DNA from: Gemmatimonas sp.
GTDB lineage: Bacteria > Gemmatimonadota > Gemmatimonadetes > Gemmatimonadales > Gemmatimonadaceae
DNA length: 64,000 bases
Assembly: GCA_965279375.1 (NCBI GenBank)
Contig: OZ257156.1
Location: 2,304,001-2,368,000, forward strand
Direction of reading: 5' to 3'
Below the pieces are notes generated by a model that saw only the letters and a program-made list of their open reading frames with translations, did no database searches and was not told where the DNA came from. A program made the translations under genes and the position numbers. Shown here piece after piece: positions 905 through 36,528 of the stretch; the first letter of the stretch is position 1; each line of letters begins with the position of its first letter.

Positions 905-2917
<2,013 letters not shown>

Positions 2918-28809: not shown

Positions 28810-30044
28810 TAGATGCCACCCAGCACGATATCGATCTGTCGGGAAATGCCGTCGCGGATCGCGGCGGGTATGTCAAAGGTACTCGCGAACGTCGCCTTGA
28901 GCGTTCCGGTGGGCGTCGCCGCATCCGCCCGCACGCCGCTCTGAGTGAGATAGAATCGCATGTAGCCGTCCAGCAACTCCGGCGCGACACGCTCGAGCAA
29001 CAACGCCCCGGCCCGCACCTGCCCAAGCGAGATGTAGCGATCGGCTGCACCAGACCGCTGTTCGGCCGGCGTCGTGTTGTCGCCAATCACACCCGTCACA
29101 AGCGTACCGGTGAACTCGTGCGCCAACACGAAGAGCGCATCCGCCGCATCCTGCACGCGCCCGGGCAACGGCACGGCCACCACCGTCTGCCGGTCGCGCC
29201 CCACACCGGTGCGTCCTTCGCCGCCGACGGGAATGGACAGCACCACATCGCCATTGCGCTGACTGGTGTTGTTCAGAAAGCGATCGAACCGCGCGCGATA
29301 CGTGCCCTGCCACAATGAATCCACGGCCGAAATCACGGCGTGCCGCGTGCGAATGACGCGCGTGTGCTCAGCGTTGAAGAACCGTGCCTGCTCATCCGTC
29401 ACGCCATTCAGAAACAAGCGCAGCCACTCCCGATCCGCCGTCGTAGGAAAGAGCGCCGCGAAGGAAAGCGCGCCACCCGAACGATCAGGCGTACGGCGCG
29501 GATCGTCGCCCTGTGTCAGGAAGCGTTCCGCAGCCACGCGCATCTCTTCCCAATTCGCGTAGCCAAACGGCACGAACTGCGCCTGCAGATAGCTTGGCGA
29601 CGATGCCAGTCGCTTGGCCAACGTCCCGCGATTCACGTCGAGTGACGTGAGCAGGTTGGCGCGATTCTTCTCAACCGTCAGCGAGTCACGATAGCCGCGC
29701 CGAAACAGCGGTACCTTCGTCGTGTCGTTGCTGACCATCGCAAAGGCGTGCAGCCACAGGTCCACGTGCTCCGACGTCTTGATCGGCCAGCGTGAGGCGC
29801 GATAGGGCAGCGCCGGGTTCTCCGCCTCGCTGGTCTGCGCTCTGGCGCGCACCGGCGCGCGCGTGGGCGCACGCGTTGGCTGCGGGGCAGGGGCCGGCTC
29901 AGGGTTGGACACCGGAATGGGCTGCGCGCACGCACTCAGCGTGCAGGCAACGAGGACGCAGCCGCTCAGCGCGAGGGCCGCCGTCGCACGAGACGATCGG
30001 GGCGCAACGGTAGACCGTCGCGCCGAATTCAACAGAAGAGACAT
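28809..30044 (-). CDS. Hypothetical lipoprotein
   Basis: Signal ending LSAC, Pro-rich linker, LAHEFTG segment (incomplete HExxH). Confidence 0.7.
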   Translation of the reverse strand: MSLLLNSARRSTVAPRSSRATAALALSGCVLVACTLSACAQPIPVSNPEPAPAPQPTRAPTRAPVRARAQTSEAENPALPYRASRWPIKTSEHVDLWLHAFAMVSNDTTKVPLFRRGYRDSLTVEKNRANLLTSLDVNRGTLAKRLASSPSYLQAQFVPFGYANWEEMRVAAERFLTQGDDPRRTPDRSGGALSFAALFPTTADREWLRLFLNGVTDEQARFFNAEHTRVIRTRHAVISAVDSLWQGTYRARFDRFLNNTSQRNGDVVLSIPVGGEGRTGVGRDRQTVVAVPLPGRVQDAADALFVLAHEFTGTLVTGVIGDNTTPAEQRSGAADRYISLGQVRAGALLLERVAPELLDGYMRFYLTQSGVRADAATPTGTLKATFASTFDIPAAIRDGISRQIDIVLGGI

Positions 30045-30127
30045 GGAGTGCAAGATCGCCGTGTCACCGCAGTCGGAGCTAGCGCGTGCGTTCACGCGCG
30101 CCGCCACGGAATGGCGCTCTATACCCG

Positions 30128-30874
30128 CTAGCTGGCTGCTCGCTTCGCCAAGGGCGCGCTCGCCGGCGTGTCGGGGAGCTCTGCGCTCCGACCGCAGGTC
30201 ACGCAGAAGCGCCACGCCGCATCCAGCTCGGTGCTGCAGGCGGGGCACTGCCGCTTGGTCTGGTCCAGTCCGCAGTGCGGGCAGAAGGTGACGCGACGAT
30301 CCTGCGGAAGTCGGCCGCCACAAAAGCGGCAACCACACCCCTTGCCATCGCTACCGCGCGAGCGAGCTGCCGACGCGCCGTCGCTCAGCACCTCGACACG
30401 CAGCCCCGCGCGGTTCGTGGTCGTCGTGGCGGCCGCGCTCACGCTCGCCTCTCCTCGGCGGCCCTGCATGCTCTCCGACGACAGCTGCGCCGCGTCGAAG
30501 GCACCGCTCACCCGCTCCATTCCCACGCTGATCGCGGCCTCGCCGAGCGCCAGCGACGCACCGGACCAGCTGCGCACCAGCGCGAGCGTGGGGGACGGCA
30601 GCGCCAGCGCATTGTGACAGGCTCGCTGCAACTCTCCCTCGGCGTGCACATAGCCTCGCTCGCCGCCCACCAGCCGAAGCACCGTGCGTTCCCACGCGTC
30701 CGCGCCACCGTCGGCCATCTCCCGACGGGATTCGCGAAAGGGCAGCAGCCGCTCCTCGAGGTCCGTGAGCGAAAAGCCATGCTCACGAAGCTGCGGATAG
30801 TGCTGACGGATCGTGCGAACGAGACGAAAGGCCAGCCGATCGAGATCGTCCATCGAACGAGCGGTGGTCGTCAC
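30128..30874 (-). CDS. Double zinc ribbon domain protein
   Basis: CRFC..CPHC..CPAC..CVTC at the C-terminus; GTG 30874 overlaps the upstream TGA. Confidence 0.8.
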   Translation of the reverse strand: MTTTARSMDDLDRLAFRLVRTIRQHYPQLREHGFSLTDLEERLLPFRESRREMADGGADAWERTVLRLVGGERGYVHAEGELQRACHNALALPSPTLALVRSWSGASLALGEAAISVGMERVSGAFDAAQLSSESMQGRRGEASVSAAATTTTNRAGLRVEVLSDGASAARSRGSDGKGCGCRFCGGRLPQDRRVTFCPHCGLDQTKRQCPACSTELDAAWRFCVTCGRSAELPDTPASAPLAKRAAS

Positions 30875-31053
30875 CGCTTCTCGGCCTGCACCATCTGGGC
30901 GTCCACGTCTCCACTGACCATCGCGCGGCTCGCGCCGCCGATCTGTCCGATCATGCGCTCCGCCACGTTCAGGTCGTGCAAGTGCGCGTCCTTCCAGCCG
31001 TAGCCATACCCGATGGCCACGCCGATGCACAGAATGAGGAGGAACTTGAACAT
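30871..31053 (-). CDS. Small membrane-anchored protein (60 aa)
   Basis: MFKFLLILCIGVAIGYGYGWKD...; stop overlaps the downstream start. Confidence 0.65.
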   Translation of the reverse strand: MFKFLLILCIGVAIGYGYGWKDAHLHDLNVAERMIGQIGGASRAMVSGDVDAQMVQAEKR

Positions 31054-31190
31054 GAATCCAGGGGGTGGGGGCGGTGAAACGGCCCGGTGATCTACCCCTG
31101 ACGACGCACTGTCGCAGAGCCGCGTAACGGCACTTTCGCCCACTCTGTCACACCCACGGCAACGCCCTCACGTGCGCTGCCGTTCTGTCC

Positions 31191-31802
31191 TCATCCTAGT
31201 CGTGCGGCCGGGACAAATCGCGCGGCATCGGGGAACGGCGCAATCGCCGGCTGCGGCTTGCCGGCCTTCACGGGAAGCGATGCCATCCATGCCTCGAAGC
31301 CTGACGCGACGAGGCTGTCGCTCGCGTCCTGCTGCGCTGCCGCGCGCGTCGCGAGATGATTGGCGTATTCGTTCTGCGGGTGCCCGGCGTGTCCTTTCAC
31401 CCACTGCCACATGCACTCGTGCGCGGCGATCGCCTCGACGGCATCCTGCCACAACTCGAGGTTCTCCACCGCGCCTTCCTTTCGCTTCCAGCCTCGCGCA
31501 ATCCACCCGCGTACCCACGACGTCATCCCATCGACGATGTAGCGCGAGTCGGTGGTGAAGTGAATCGAGAGTGCGTTGCCTTTGCGCGAGAGTGCGCGCA
31601 CCGTGTCCGTCACGGAGCGAAGCGCCATGCGATTGTTGGTCGTGTTTGGCTCCGACGCCCACAGATCGAATCGCTGCAGCGTTCCATCGGCGCGACGGAA
31701 TTCAATCAGCGCGCCGAAGCCGCCCGGCGTGTCTCCGGCCTTGCCGTTGCCCAGGCACGACTCGTCCGCGTACACGGACACCAATGGGTAGCGCGCGCTC
31801 AT
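31191..31802 (-). CDS. rnhA: Ribonuclease HI with atypical active-site residues
   Basis: YADESCLGN, TTNNRM, TTDSRY..G.T.W, W..RGWK, VENLELW, WVKGHAGHPQNE. Confidence 0.9.
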   Translation of the reverse strand: MSARYPLVSVYADESCLGNGKAGDTPGGFGALIEFRRADGTLQRFDLWASEPNTTNNRMALRSVTDTVRALSRKGNALSIHFTTDSRYIVDGMTSWVRGWIARGWKRKEGAVENLELWQDAVEAIAAHECMWQWVKGHAGHPQNEYANHLATRAAAQQDASDSLVASGFEAWMASLPVKAGKPQPAIAPFPDAARFVPAARLG

Positions 31803-32014
31803 CGCACGATCTCGATGGCGTCGAGTTCATCGAGAAACAGCTCGAGTCGCCCTCCAGTGGACGGATGTCGCGCGAGAATCACCTCGCGTCCGCCTACGAG
31901 TCGCAGCTGATCGGGAATGACGAGATACTCGGTGCCTCGACGCCAGATCGAAATGCGCTTGCCATCCACGATCGCCCGTTCGAGCCGATCGTAGTCACCC
32001 ACCGACATGTCCAT
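31799..32014 (-). CDS. Small protein, WYL/Sm-like fold suspected
   Basis: 71 aa: LERAIVDGKRISI...LVIPDQL...VILAR...RLELFLDELDAIEIV; TGA overlaps the rnhA ATG. Confidence 0.65.
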   Translation of the reverse strand: MDMSVGDYDRLERAIVDGKRISIWRRGTEYLVIPDQLRLVGGREVILARHPSTGGRLELFLDELDAIEIVR

Positions 32015-32046
32015 GACTTTCCAGTTAACGTCTGATCTGCGCCCGC

Positions 32047-33201
32047 TCAGCGACCCCAAGCCGCGCACACCTGTTCCAGCACAGCGGTCGCCTGCTCCAG
32101 CTGTTCATGCTCCACCCACTCCTCGGCGGAGTGCGCACGCGCAATATCACCGGGCCCGAAGCACAGCGCTGGTATACCGGCCGCGTTGAACAATGCCGCA
32201 TCGGTCCAGCAGGCGAGCCCCGTGACCGTTTCGCTGAGCCCTTGAGCGCCCACGGCAGACAACACCGCACGCGTCAGCGGCGCATCCAGCGCAAGATCGC
32301 TGGGTGGCTGCGCGCACGCGAGGGAGAGCGTCGCCTCGAATTCCGGACGTGACGCGCGGATCTCGTCGCAGAGTGCCTGCACTTCCTGCATGACACTCAC
32401 AGCGAGTTCACCCGGAATCGTGCGGCGCTCGATGCGCAGCGTGCACTGATCGGCATATGTAGACCAACCCGTTCCGCCGTGAATCGTCGCGGCATGCAAC
32501 GATGGACGACCGAGCAGCGGATGTTGACGCTGCGTCAGCACGTCGTACTCGAATCGATCGAGCGCTGCGAGGAGTAGTCCGGCATGCCGTACCGCATCCA
32601 CTCCCACGTCGTAGCGACTGCCGTGTGCGGCGATGCCGCGTAGCACGACCTCGATCCACGCAAAGCCCTTGTGCGACGGCACGACGGCGAGACGCGTTGG
32701 CTCCGTGACGATCGCGCCCGCAGCACGCAGTCCATTCTCCAGCAATGCACGTGTGCCGATCGATTCGTACTCCTCGTCGCACACGGCGGCGATCACCATC
32801 TCGCTGACGAGCGAGCCGCGCGCCGAGGCCCGCGCGGCGGCGACGCACATCGCGGCGATTCCGCCTTTCATGTCACTCGAGCCGCGTGCGTACAGGCTAC
32901 CGTTGCGAGTCAGTGGCACGAACGGGTCATGCACCATGCCGTCGGTGCCGACGACGTCGAGGTGGCCGTTGAGCACCAACGGCGTTCGTCCGGTCGGACC
33001 GATGCGCGCTACGACATTCGGCCGCCCAGGAGCGACTTCATCCAACGACACGGCGAAGCCCCAGCCGCTCAGTACCTTCGCCAAGAACTGCGCGCACGCC
33101 ATCTCACCGGGTGCGCCAGGCACCAGGCTGGGATTGCGCGAATCGATCGCGACGAGCGCTTCAGTGAGCGCGATGGGATCGAGCGGGAATCGAGAATGCA
33201 C
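32047..33201 (-). CDS. M20 family metallopeptidase (ArgE/DapE-like deacylase)
   Basis: NGHLDVV, RGSSDMKGG, DEE, EPT, AHGS, GPG...AHSAEEWV. Confidence 0.92.
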   Translation of the reverse strand: MHSRFPLDPIALTEALVAIDSRNPSLVPGAPGEMACAQFLAKVLSGWGFAVSLDEVAPGRPNVVARIGPTGRTPLVLNGHLDVVGTDGMVHDPFVPLTRNGSLYARGSSDMKGGIAAMCVAAARASARGSLVSEMVIAAVCDEEYESIGTRALLENGLRAAGAIVTEPTRLAVVPSHKGFAWIEVVLRGIAAHGSRYDVGVDAVRHAGLLLAALDRFEYDVLTQRQHPLLGRPSLHAATIHGGTGWSTYADQCTLRIERRTIPGELAVSVMQEVQALCDEIRASRPEFEATLSLACAQPPSDLALDAPLTRAVLSAVGAQGLSETVTGLACWTDAALFNAAGIPALCFGPGDIARAHSAEEWVEHEQLEQATAVLEQVCAAWGR

Positions 33202-33248
33202 AGGGTTGGCTGAGACACCCGGAGCATACCGCGCGGTGGCGCGATTGG

Positions 33249-34229
33249 TCAGTCCGCGTCGCTCCACGAAACACGCGCACCATTCCGTGCCACTCGCCAC
33301 GGCAGCAGCTCGCCCCACGCTCTTGCCGCCCCCTCCACCGCACGAATCCGCTCCGGCGGTGCCATGACGATCACGCACCCACCGCCCGACGCACCCAGCG
33401 CCTTTACCGCCGATGCCCCTGCACGGCGCGTCGCCTCTTCCAGGCGGTCGATCCGTTCGGTGCTGATCTTGGGATGCAGCGATCGCTGATGGATCCAATG
33501 CTCATCCACCAGCGCGGCAAGACTCGACACATCGCCGGCGGCTATCGCGTCGCGCATCGACATCGCCAGCGTCTTCATGCGATCCAGCGCCTGCAGCACG
33601 CGCGGCTCCCGATCGGCGTACGCATTCAGCACCGCCGAGATCGTCGTTCCGGAGATTCGCGACTCGCCTGTATAGATGAGCAGGCACTGCGCCTCTAGCG
33701 CGTCGCAGGCGGTCTGCGTCAGCGGGATCTGCTCCACGGTCGTCTCGCGACCGAACGTCAAGCCGAGCGCGCCGCCGAACGCGGCGGCATAGTGGTCCTG
33801 AAAGCCGCCCGCCACTCCAAGTTCGTTCACTTCCACCGCGCGGCTCCACTCGGCGAGCGCCTGCGGGTCGGTCGGGCGCTTCTGTAGCGTGGCCAGCGCG
33901 ATCGCGAGGGCGACGCCTGCCGCCGAGGACCCGCCTAGCCCTGCGGCAACGGGAAAATCGGACGTGAGCGCGCAGCGATGCAGTGACCCGACGGGACCAT
34001 GACGAGCAGCCGCACGAAGCGCGGCGGCCACGAGCGGGCCGTCGTCCGATGGCGGGCCGTCGGTCGGGGCAAATCGGAATGCGACCGTCGCTCGTCGCTC
34101 GATGGCGAGGTTACAAACGAAGCCGCCTCGCTCTTCGGGGAAGGGTGGGACATCTGTCCACCCTCCGCCAAAGTCGAGGCGCGTCGGCGCCGACGCGCTG
34201 AGCGTGCGGCGCAATTGAGGCTCGTTCAC
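33249..34229 (-). CDS. GHMP family sugar kinase (HddA-like)
   Basis: APTRLDFGGGWTD, PVAAGLGGSSA, GFQDHYAAAFGG, KALGASGGG. Confidence 0.88.
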   Translation of the reverse strand: MNEPQLRRTLSASAPTRLDFGGGWTDVPPFPEERGGFVCNLAIERRATVAFRFAPTDGPPSDDGPLVAAALRAAARHGPVGSLHRCALTSDFPVAAGLGGSSAAGVALAIALATLQKRPTDPQALAEWSRAVEVNELGVAGGFQDHYAAAFGGALGLTFGRETTVEQIPLTQTACDALEAQCLLIYTGESRISGTTISAVLNAYADREPRVLQALDRMKTLAMSMRDAIAAGDVSSLAALVDEHWIHQRSLHPKISTERIDRLEEATRRAGASAVKALGASGGGCVIVMAPPERIRAVEGAARAWGELLPWRVARNGARVSWSDAD

Positions 34230-34242
34230 GCGAGCCCGGTAC

Positions 34243-35124
34243 TTACTTCTTGGCGGTCTTCTTGGCCGGTGCCTTGGCGGCCGGCTTGGCCGGCGCCTTG
34301 GCCGCAGGCTTCGCAGGGGCCTTGGCCGGCGCCTTAGATGCAGACTTCGCAGCAGGAGCAGCCTTGGCTGGCGCGGCCGACTTGGCGGGAGCCGCAGCCT
34401 TAGCCGGCGCCTTTGCCGCTGGCTTGGCGGCGGGCGCAGCCTTGGCCGGAGCTGCGGCCTTCGCAGGCGCAGCAGCCTTTACCGGTTCCGGCGCCGGAGC
34501 AGCCTTGGCGGGTGCCTTGGCTGCGGGCTTCTCGGCGACCTTCTCGGCCGGCTTTTCCGCGACCTTCTCGACGACCTTCTCCGCAACCTTCTCAACCTTG
34601 GGCGCGACGGGCTTGGCGACCGGCGCCGGGCGATCCGGAGAGCGAGGCGGTTCGATGCGCATGGCGGCGCGCGCTTCGAGCGCTGCCTCGGCGGCGGCGG
34701 CGGGAGCCGCGACAGCCTTGGGCATCTGGCCGAGCGGGATCGGCTTTGGCGGTGGCGCCTTGGGTTCCGGCTTGGGGAGCGAGCCGTGCTTGGCGATGTA
34801 CGCCGCCTCGGCCTGCTGGATCAGCACTTCGGCTTCCTCGGCGCCCATCTGGCCGCGGCGGACCATGTAATGCACCAGGTCGCGAGCGCTTTCGATGGCG
34901 AAGGCGCTGAATCCCGCCGCCGCACCGATCACTTCGCGCATGGCGCCGGCCATCTTGCTGCCGGCCTCCAGGCTGATTTCATGCGCCCGCGCGGCCATTT
35001 CGGCAGCGGTGTCGCGCGCATCCGCAGCGCGGTGTCCAGGGCCACGACGAGGGGGGGGGCTGGCGGCCGGTGCGGCCTCGCCTTCCGTCATCGCTTCGTC
35101 GTCTTCCTGCGGCTTATCGGCCAT
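34243..35124 (-). CDS. PhaF-like protein: phasin-type N-terminal domain plus histone H1-like AKP-rich tail
   Basis: GAAAGFSAFAIESARDLVHYMVRRGQMGAEEA segment; C-terminal (A)AKPA/KAPA/KAAPA repeats and AEKV/AEKP repeats. Confidence 0.7.
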   Translation of the reverse strand: MADKPQEDDEAMTEGEAAPAASPPPRRGPGHRAADARDTAAEMAARAHEISLEAGSKMAGAMREVIGAAAGFSAFAIESARDLVHYMVRRGQMGAEEAEVLIQQAEAAYIAKHGSLPKPEPKAPPPKPIPLGQMPKAVAAPAAAAEAALEARAAMRIEPPRSPDRPAPVAKPVAPKVEKVAEKVVEKVAEKPAEKVAEKPAAKAPAKAAPAPEPVKAAAPAKAAAPAKAAPAAKPAAKAPAKAAAPAKSAAPAKAAPAAKSASKAPAKAPAKPAAKAPAKPAAKAPAKKTAKK

Positions 35125-35400
35125 GGATCGAACGCACTCCTTCCGCCAAACATGGTGGGCACGGAGACCTGGAGTGCGTACCGCGCGCTCTAGCAAGCGC
35201 GCATTGTGCCTTCCGGGTCGTCCAGAATGCGGGTAACTATATGATTTTCAGACATCTACGCAAGTCGCTGCGGTGCAAAAAGTGCCCTCGACATACATGG
35301 TATATGCGAGCTGCGGCCGGGATCGACTGGTGCGAGAGCGCTCGGCGATCCATTCGGAATAGAGAATTTAGAAGCACTATCAGGACATTTTGGAAACAGT

Positions 35401-36528
35401 ATGAAGACACTTCCGCTAAAAGACGTTCGAGTGCTCGATCTGTCGCGGGTGCTCGCCGGGCCACTCTGCACGATGATGCTGGGTGATCTGGGGGCGAACG
35501 TCATCAAGGTCGAGCGGCCTGGCACGGGCGACGACACGCGTGGTTGGGGGCCGCCGTTCGCGGCGGATGGGCAGTCGGCCTATTTCCTGAGCAGCAATCG
35601 GAACAAGCTCTCGATCGCTGCTGACTTCCGGAATCCGGAAGATCGCGATCTCGTTTTGTCGCTCATCCGCGGCGCGGATGTCGTCATCGACAACTTCCTA
35701 CCCGGCTCACTGGCTCGATATGGGCTTGATAGAGCTTCTGAACTGGCAGCTAATGAGCGCCTGATCTGGTGCTCGATCTCCGGATTTGGCGCAGATAGCC
35801 AGCGACCCGGCTACGATTTCGTCGTGCAAGCCGAATCCGGGTGGATGTCGATCAACGGCCCCGAGGCCGGACCGCCGATGCGAACCGGGGTTGCCTTGGT
35901 CGATGTCATTACCGGCAAGGACGCGGCGATCGCCATTCTCGCTGCGCTGGCGGGCCGGGAGCTTGGGCACCCGATCGAGCGAGAGATCGAGATCTCGCTG
36001 CTCGGGAGCGCGACCGCGGCGCTCATCAACGTTGGGCAGAACACGCTCGTCAGCGGACTGGAAGCCAAGCGCTGGGGCAACGCGCACCCCAACCTCGTCC
36101 CCTATCAGTTGTTCGACGCGGCGGACCGGCCGTTCGTGATCGCGGTCGGGTCAGACACGCAATGGATTGCGGCGGCCAACGCGCTCGGCCTGTCCGAGCT
36201 CGCAGCCGACCCCGCGCTGGCGACCAACGCCGGCCGCCTCGCCCACCGGCAGCGCCTCGTCGACGCTATCACAGCCCGGGTGCTGGGCGCGGACGCCTCC
36301 GTCTGGCTGGCCGCGCTCGATGCCGCCGGCGTCCCCTGTGGCGTGGTCCGTTCCGTCGGCGAAGCGTTACAGAATGTGCAGGCGTCGCCGGTCACAGGAA
36401 TCTCGTCCCCAGTGAACGGTGTCGTTCGCTACCCGCCACCGTCACTAAGTGCGCACAAAAAAGAAATTCAAGAAAAACAGTGGAGAGCTTTCGATGACGT
36501 GCCGATACTGCCTCAACAGGTCCTGTGA
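35401..36528 (+). CDS. CoA-transferase family III (CaiB/BaiF)
   Basis: VRVLDLSRVLAGP, LGANVIKVE, GDDTR, NRNKLS, GYDFVVQAESG, catalytic D in LVDVITG. Confidence 0.93.
   Translation: MKTLPLKDVRVLDLSRVLAGPLCTMMLGDLGANVIKVERPGTGDDTRGWGPPFAADGQSAYFLSSNRNKLSIAADFRNPEDRDLVLSLIRGADVVIDNFLPGSLARYGLDRASELAANERLIWCSISGFGADSQRPGYDFVVQAESGWMSINGPEAGPPMRTGVALVDVITGKDAAIAILAALAGRELGHPIEREIEISLLGSATAALINVGQNTLVSGLEAKRWGNAHPNLVPYQLFDAADRPFVIAVGSDTQWIAAANALGLSELAADPALATNAGRLAHRQRLVDAITARVLGADASVWLAALDAAGVPCGVVRSVGEALQNVQASPVTGISSPVNGVVRYPPPSLSAHKKEIQEKQWRAFDDVPILPQQVL

Follow-up and report, generated by a model that had tools for sequence, protein, structure and literature searches.

Directly upstream of rnhA, the RNase HI gene of a Gemmatimonas sp., lies a small open reading frame that overlaps it by four nucleotides, and the question arises what its product does and why it is encoded beside this enzyme. 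The locus was analysed in a window of 64,000 nucleotides (contig OZ257156.1, positions 2,304,001 to 2,368,000), which is part of a complete 5.31-Mb genome. From the sequence alone, the product had been proposed to be a miniature WYL-like protein which senses nucleic acids and acts on a variant RNase H. The best explanation obtained here, which we put forward tentatively, is that it is a Rof-like inhibitor of Rho that is co-expressed with RNase HI.

The small gene and its surroundings

The relevant features, in descending coordinates, are:

32047..33201 (start approximate), minus strand: ArgE/DapE-family M20 deacylase gene, 32 nt upstream of the small gene
32017..32022, minus strand: GGAAAG, putative ribosome-binding site, better spaced for Met3 (32008)
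31799..32014, minus strand: small ORF of 71 amino acids without internal stop, predicted to encode a stand-alone protein with an Sm fold, of the WYL/Rof/Hfq group
31799..31802, minus strand: ATGA, stop/start overlap of the small gene (TGA) with rnhA (ATG), as read in the sequence
31191..31802, minus strand: rnhA, 203 amino acids, LC9-type DEDN active site (D13, E14, D85, N148) with Ala at the position of E. coli E48
30128..31030 (start approximate), minus strand: gene of a double zinc ribbon (DZR) protein, downstream of rnhA

The small ORF is confirmed as a real gene, and it is present as a single copy in the complete genome. The sequence-only reading had described a 71-aa frame whose TGA overlaps the ATG of rnhA, and this is exactly what is found (ATGA, 31802-31799); the strand, which had been left unstated, is the minus strand, and the plus frame over 31799..32014 is not the gene. 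Translational coupling of both genes through this overlap is likely. Since GGAAAG (32022-32017) is located 8 nt ahead of Met3 at 32008 and only 2 nt ahead of Met1, the true start may be Met3, which would yield a protein of 69 amino acids. A scan of positions 30000-35600 for promoters and terminators returned 0 sites.

A large family without annotation

The 71-aa protein gave no match in Pfam or NCBIfam, none in the phage records, and chance matches only in sequence searches of the PDB. The literature searched on the RNase H of Gemmatimonas and on Rho and Rof of Gemmatimonadota, in which subscription journals were little covered, held nothing on the small protein. Homologues were numerous: 147 of 148 candidates were homologous at E ≤ 0.001, all of them from Gemmatimonadota, and a broad family profile recovered 4318 of 7996 candidates scored. 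Among the 120 members of the broad profile that were listed, none carried a Pfam label.

A search without length limit resulted in 71 cluster representatives of 39-117 amino acids, except three of 143, 164 and 270 amino acids. Since even these three, which look like chimeras, show no HTH-WYL-WCX layout, the small protein stands alone, with neither HTH, WCX nor enzyme domain, as the sequence-only reading had assumed. For residue conservation, two member sets were compared (119 close and 61 diverse members). E12, A14 and R20 are invariant across the family, L11, R25, R26, G27, E29, T53 and G54 nearly so, and position 44 is occupied by E or D in all members. The hairpin R25-R26-G27-x-E29-Y30 represents the strongest motif.

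The small gene occurred in 88 of 151 sampled genomes of the phylum, almost only in Gemmatimonadales (28/30 and 58/74 in two large families of this order and 1/46 elsewhere, with the own genome uncounted); the tallies over 151 genomes include two genomes flagged as unpublished (G053 and G093), and related genomes are non-independent in all distribution and linkage counts. It was missed in 18 of the 104 genomes of the two carrier families. With the broader profile, no clear copy was detected in 62 of 63 negative genomes (90-100% complete), which means 'not found' and not 'absent', and three weak matches occurred (E 0.001-0.006). The small gene is dispensable, and RNase H was matched in all 151 genomes of the same sample.

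The small proteins form a real and large Sm-fold family that has not been described before and is placed between WYL, Rof and Hfq; by the defining features of these three, they are members of none of them. A separate 82-aa ORF at L208:1459-1707 (+) is weakly family-like (E 0.004) and has no Pfam match. We take its flanking genes, named by eye, to be nitrilase/NAD-synthetase-like and CrcB-like.

Predicted fold and sequence kinship

The AlphaFold2 model of the small protein (pLDDT 94.6) shows a helix (residues 5-17) followed by five strands. With this model, Foldseek listed WYL regulators in leading position, Rof and Hfq, none of them at E ≤ 0.001; the comparison with Rho-bound Rof (8W8D) gave a TMq of 0.79, an rmsd of 2.0 and 20% identity. 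In VIA-align, Hfq was the top match (Z 10.6, rmsd 1.7, 62 aligned, 10% identity), and a repeat run agreed; CapW (9C5G, a WYL protein) was matched with Z 9.2 (rmsd 2.4, 71 aligned, 14% identity) and YaeO (6JIE) with Z 8.8 (rmsd 1.9, 63 aligned, 19% identity). The identity to Rof/YaeO (19-20%) exceeds that to Hfq (7-16%). The model points to an Sm-like fold, in agreement with the WYL/Sm-like fold expected earlier, and such a fold does not name a function.

At the sequence level, Pfam WYL (PF13280) was matched at E ≤ 1 by 23/119 close and 11/61 diverse members (best 8e-6 and 2e-5). When the family profile was compared over 70 columns with 44 true WYL domains of the same phylum, the probability was 91-94%, with a score of 36 in comparison to 10.6 for the reversed control, so that the WYL-like pattern noticed from the sequence is above chance. 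For Rof, the E. coli reference was taken from MG1655, and the profile consisted of 11 non-redundant sequences of 50 gathered. The family-Rof profile alignments had P values of 4e-4 to 5e-3 (reversed control 0.3); with the 11 Rof sequences the score was 24.7 (P 4e-4), and reversed profiles scored about 10.5. With 36 against 25, the full WYL profile outscores Rof; when WYL is subsampled to the depth of the Rof profile, the scores range from 10.8 to 34.8. Because 5/12 of these subsamples lie above Rof, sequence kinship to WYL and to Rof is a tie at equal depth. Pfam ROF (PF07073) was matched by 0/119 close and 0/61 diverse members and gave no match in the genome scan. In a language-model atlas, which provides a lead only, the nearest named leads were ROF- and WYL/ROF-containing clusters (0.87-0.88), with ROF on 19% of the members.

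Residues shared with Rof and the possible inhibition of Rho

The alignment with the Rof profile (67-68 columns) is in structural register and pairs Y8/D9/E12/A14/E44/L61/D62 with Y13/D14/E17/A19/E50/L65/D66 of Rof. A different register, obtained with a shallow Rof profile (RRGTEYL on RKNVEYL, P 0.016), was discarded, since it misfits the model with five strands and the register over the full length is recovered by deeper profiles. Y13, D14, E17 and E50 of Rof are reported to touch Rho, as do the N-terminal arm (I8-D11) and the C-terminal tail; the exchanges Y13A and D14A abolish binding to Rho, and E17K abolishes toxicity (PMC11018626, PMC11018607).

In the small family, D or E is present at position 9 in 119/119 close and 53/61 diverse members, and E12 as well as E/D44 in 119/119 and 61/61. 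In the 44 true WYL domains, position 9 is mixed, position 12 is mostly occupied by R, and 35 domains carry W at position 44. It is these kept residues that separate a kinship to Rof from one to WYL: three of the four main Rho contacts of Rof are retained across the family (D9, E12, E44). The fourth, Y8 (Y13 in Rof), is found in 119/119 close members and 33/61 diverse members; in the other 28/61 it is replaced by L/M/I/F/V, and the Rho surface is unchanged in those lineages.

Thus, the small protein and Rof/YaeO have in common a stand-alone Sm fold, a similar size (70-72 amino acids; Rof class 70-85), the helix Y-D-x-x-E-x-A, a Glu after the beta2-beta3 turn and L-D before the last strand. Unlike Rof/YaeO, the small protein has no Pfam ROF match, its tyrosine is not universal, and neither the YQPINC arm (I8-D11) nor the C-terminal tail is present in the family alignments. 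Its additional RRGxEY motif, its different phylum and its linkage to rnhA are further differences; Rof is described as restricted to Pseudomonadota (PMC11018626), and no Rof relatives were confirmed on viral contigs.

The genome harbours two Rho genes; two matches were obtained in most genomes of the class and one in most genomes of other classes. The canonical Rho (417 amino acids, genome positions 2655627-2656877) retains S82, S84, Q85, R88, F89, K105, L114, K115 and E125. The 670-aa Rho (window 905-2917, minus strand) has S, A, L, L and H at positions 82, 84, 85, 88 and 89. The canonical surface only permits a Rof model and does not discriminate, because the Rho residues contacted by Rof are reported to be conserved irrespective of the presence of Rof (PMC11018626). 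The paralogue pair is located at window 905-2917 (-) and L174:622-1875 (-), and the 670-aa protein has a long N-terminus rich in R/G/N/D, no Rho_N match and a changed primary RNA-binding site.

On these grounds the small protein may act on Rho in the manner of Rof, as an inhibitor. By analogy, it would use its first helix together with the turn at E44 to bind to the primary RNA-binding site of Rho, which Rof is reported to block (PMC11018626), and the bound protein would damp Rho. RNase HI made alongside would then clear the RNA-DNA hybrids that build up when Rho is damped. As E. coli mutants in the primary site of Rho are described as synthetically lethal in the absence of RNase HI (PMC12203952) and Rof blocks just this site, simultaneous production of RNase HI would benefit a cell in which Rho is damped. 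Binding to Rho, its inhibition, co-transcription of both genes and the reason for their linkage are the steps that we infer. Several observations stand against this explanation: in fold, the protein is closest to Hfq, which exceeds YaeO by more than one Z unit, the RRGxEY hairpin has no role in the model, and the linkage may be inherited gene order, as the DZR gene is nearly as constant (72/80).

In its most far-reaching version, which we regard as rather doubtful, the protein would be a Rof-kind Rho inhibitor outside Pseudomonadota that evolved on a WYL-like scaffold, with the ssDNA groove swapped for Rho-binding acids. Its gene and rnhA would make up a single operon, a module to 'release Rho, clear the R-loops', and its target would be the canonical Rho and not the long paralogue, which has no contact residues.

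An Hfq-like function as an alternative

A serious rival, even if it appears rather unlikely when judged by itself, is that the small protein is an Hfq-like RNA-binding or adaptor protein of a lineage that has no Hfq, perhaps oligomeric, which binds RNA by the basic RRGxEY hairpin on the face opposite to the helix. The residues R20, R25, R26, G27 and E29 are invariant or nearly so; besides, Hfq (PF17209) is the best match in fold and has the same Sm core size, and a search of the complete genome yielded no Hfq. The sequences speak against this rival. The identity to Hfq is only 7-16%, the family profile scores 9.4 against the single E. coli Hfq sequence, which is in the range of reversed controls, and Pfam Hfq was not matched by any of the 119 close or 61 diverse members. 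Furthermore, the YKH stretch of Hfq corresponds to F/Y-L-D-E in the small family (in an inferred register), and the median net charge of the family is -1 to -2.

Linkage to rnhA and gene order

In total, 226 genome loci were found, and the best 80 of these were used for neighbourhood counts. Among them, rnhA directly follows the small gene in 79, the one miss being a contig end, with a gap of -4 nt in 57, 0 in 6, 5-34 nt in 3 and an unplaced gap in 13 loci; the DZR gene is present in 72 and argE in 70. Among the 88 carrier genomes, the small gene is located directly before rnhA in 59 and at a distance of 760-1030 nt in 25, three cases lie at contig ends, and one (G101) is unlinked, so that rnhA is found within about 1 kb in 84/88. 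All four gap genes tested encode universal stress proteins (Usp). Conservation of the gene pair, which had been named as a check of the original idea, is therefore observed, either directly (59/88) or one gene apart (25/88).

The ArgE/DapE-family gene is the usual upstream neighbour only in the family of the organism itself. Between the two families the upstream neighbour switches from argE to selD, and the small gene is still situated upstream of rnhA. Of the 19 frames scanned in the second family, 16 had selD ahead of the small gene. In loci without the small gene, selD lay directly against rnhA in 13 of the 15 upstream frames scanned. In two losses of the small gene within the first family, a histone-like gene abuts rnhA. 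Downstream of rnhA, the DZR gene is conserved with or without the small gene.

The linkage of the small gene and rnhA is real and outlasts a change of the upstream neighbour. The 4-nt overlap is an ordinary and unspecific operon feature, because rnhA abuts selD where the small gene is missing. From the coupling claimed by the sequence-only reading, the overlap stood; its specificity did not, since selD takes the same place elsewhere and Usp splits the pair in 25/88 genomes.

These data also bear on the explanation that the small protein is a mere passenger of the operon, i.e. a housekeeping protein unrelated to RNase HI or Rho that is kept by inherited gene order. The synteny of the whole block (DZR 72/80 and argE 70/80 of the best 80 of 226 loci), the coupling of rnhA to selD in 13/15 frames, the intervening Usp gene in 25/88 genomes together with the unlinked copy in G101, and the 18/104 genomes of the carrier families in which the gene was not found would all be in line with a passenger. 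We nevertheless consider this doubtful, as the upstream neighbours vary by family but the distance to rnhA does not exceed about 1 kb in 84/88, and as the surface residues match known Rho contacts.

Some further features of the neighbourhood were observed. The order in the second family is selD - small gene - (Usp) - rnhA, which shortens to selD - rnhA in loci without the small gene (L153-L172, L115-L132). A Lys/Ala/Pro-rich protein with a histone-like tail is encoded at 34243-35124 (-); its N-terminal part is conserved, it has no Pfam match, and it was found in 49/80 loci. A hydrophobic 60-aa ORF (30871-31053, minus strand) follows rnhA in 44/80 loci, and the DZR gene does so in 72/80. The N-terminal part of the DZR gene product is without any family match.

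The neighbouring RNase HI

The genome encodes one RNase HII and, as its sole RNase H1, the rnhA product. The structure closest to the rnhA product is LC9-RNase H1 (4IBN; 58% identical, TM 0.91), with which it shares the motifs D-E-S, NNRMAL and NEYAN and the RNase H1 fold, with no material difference. LC9-RNase H1 was cloned from a compost metagenome and is a type 1 RNase H with a type 2 active-site motif. Nguyen 2013 reportedly found it to be active alone. Judged by the 58% identity to 4IBN, the rnhA product presumably cleaves the RNA of RNA-DNA hybrids.

In comparison to E. coli RNase HI, 165/165 readable sequences have D10, E for G11, A for E48 and D70; at the fourth position of the active site, 140 sequences have N, 22 have D and 2 have H, and 2 are unreadable. 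As E48 is reported to bind metal B in type 1 RNase H (PMC4032109) and the Glu beside the first Asp does so in RNase H3 (PMC4132731), the catalytic glutamate has moved in the RNase HI of Gemmatimonadetes. That this constitutes a new type of RNase H was rejected, since LC9-RNase H1 (4IBN, DEDN) already represents it. The name DEDN is given to this enzyme in PMC4239480 (also in a reference line in PMC4423430); passages of PMC9719913 state DEDD as the rule for RNase H and leave LC9 unmentioned. The RNase H termed 'atypical' by the sequence-only reading is already known, and the enzyme itself is not new. As an aside, the presence of DEDN-type RNase H1 in all 165 readable class members ties the metagenomic LC9-RNase H1 to Gemmatimonadetes.

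The active-site pattern is identical in 128/128 loci with the small gene and in 37/37 readable loci without it, i.e. there is no co-variation of the active site with the presence of the small gene. A C-terminal extension is conserved as well (S167 and W172 invariant in 96 sequences) and is alike in loci without the small gene. The RNase HI gives no sign of needing a partner; because the active site is the same with or without the small gene, this argues against an obligatory role of the small protein. It is also the reason, together with the solved structure 4IBN, why the 'undescribed system' suggested from the sequence, with a variant RNase H at its centre, finds no support.

It is improbable that the small protein is an accessory subunit that binds or tunes the DEDN RNase HI by another route than a WYL ssDNA groove. 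Direct adjacency in 79/80 close loci, with an overlap of 4 nt in at least 57, would suit such a subunit, the conserved extension (S167, W172) could dock a partner, and stimulation of Cas13d by WYL1 has been reported as a precedent. On the other hand, active site and extension are the same without the small gene (37/37 readable), the structure of an enzyme of the same type, cloned from a metagenome, has been solved under the name LC9-RNase H1, and in 25 genomes the two genes are uncoupled by an interposed Usp gene.

Loss of the WYL ligand residues

The small protein shares with WYL domains (PF13280; PafBC, DriD, CapW, BrxR) the fold, the L..AI helix and the V.P..L strand, in addition to the profile match given above. 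It differs from them in a shorter beta1-beta2 loop and the lack of HTH and WCX; the absence of W-Y-L residues and of an HTH noticed at first holds across the members. The residues Y25, R36, Y51, R66 and R69, conserved in 41-44 of the 44 WYL controls, correspond to R25, Y30, V/A45, a variable position and E/D63 in the small family. The controls have Y in beta1 (44/44), R in beta2 (42/44) and Y in the W-Y-L triplet (42/44), none of which is matched. The arginine pair between beta4 and beta5 was found in 0/119 close and 0/61 diverse members, and its second position is E or D.

In PafB, R181, the tyrosine of the triplet and the arginines between beta4 and beta5 are each reported to be required for binding of ssDNA (PMC11804915, PMC6789036), and loss of the arginine pair is described to abolish ssDNA binding in PafBC (PMC11804915). 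Because all five conserved ligand residues are replaced, the small protein is best described as a probable WYL relative and not as a WYL-type ssDNA sensor, and sensing of nucleic acids in the manner of WYL domains, as first proposed, is not supported. A true miniature WYL sensor, with ssDNA bound in the WYL groove as a DNA-damage signal, is therefore very improbable in spite of the profile kinship of 91-94% and the leading place of WYL in the Foldseek list, as a WCX or effector domain is missing too.

Weak WYL matches were also obtained in short frames of 134 and 118 amino acids at L237:1480-1701 (-) and L238:1480-1713 (-). These frames also have no W-Y-L triplet, and the second arginine of the loop is missing as well; they would be further stand-alone WYL-like proteins in the phylum.

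Significance and other occurrences of Rof

Cellular Rho inhibitors are few, and Rof has been reported only from Pseudomonadota. If the small protein is indeed a Rof-like Rho inhibitor, it would represent a second, independent family of such inhibitors in an abundant order of soil bacteria, and one that is coupled to RNase HI. Damping of Rho and removal of R-loops would be co-regulated, as the genetics of E. coli would predict, and the WYL and Rof families would be linked in evolution. Even if the link to Rho fails, there is an unannotated single-copy Sm-fold family of more than 4000 clusters, in bacteria where the present analysis detected no Hfq.

During the searches, divergent copies of Rof itself (36-39% identical to that of E. 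coli) were detected in Enterobacter, on about 60 large plasmids, most of which are conjugative. These copies carry His at the position of Y13 (L241:43-327, L242:52-327).
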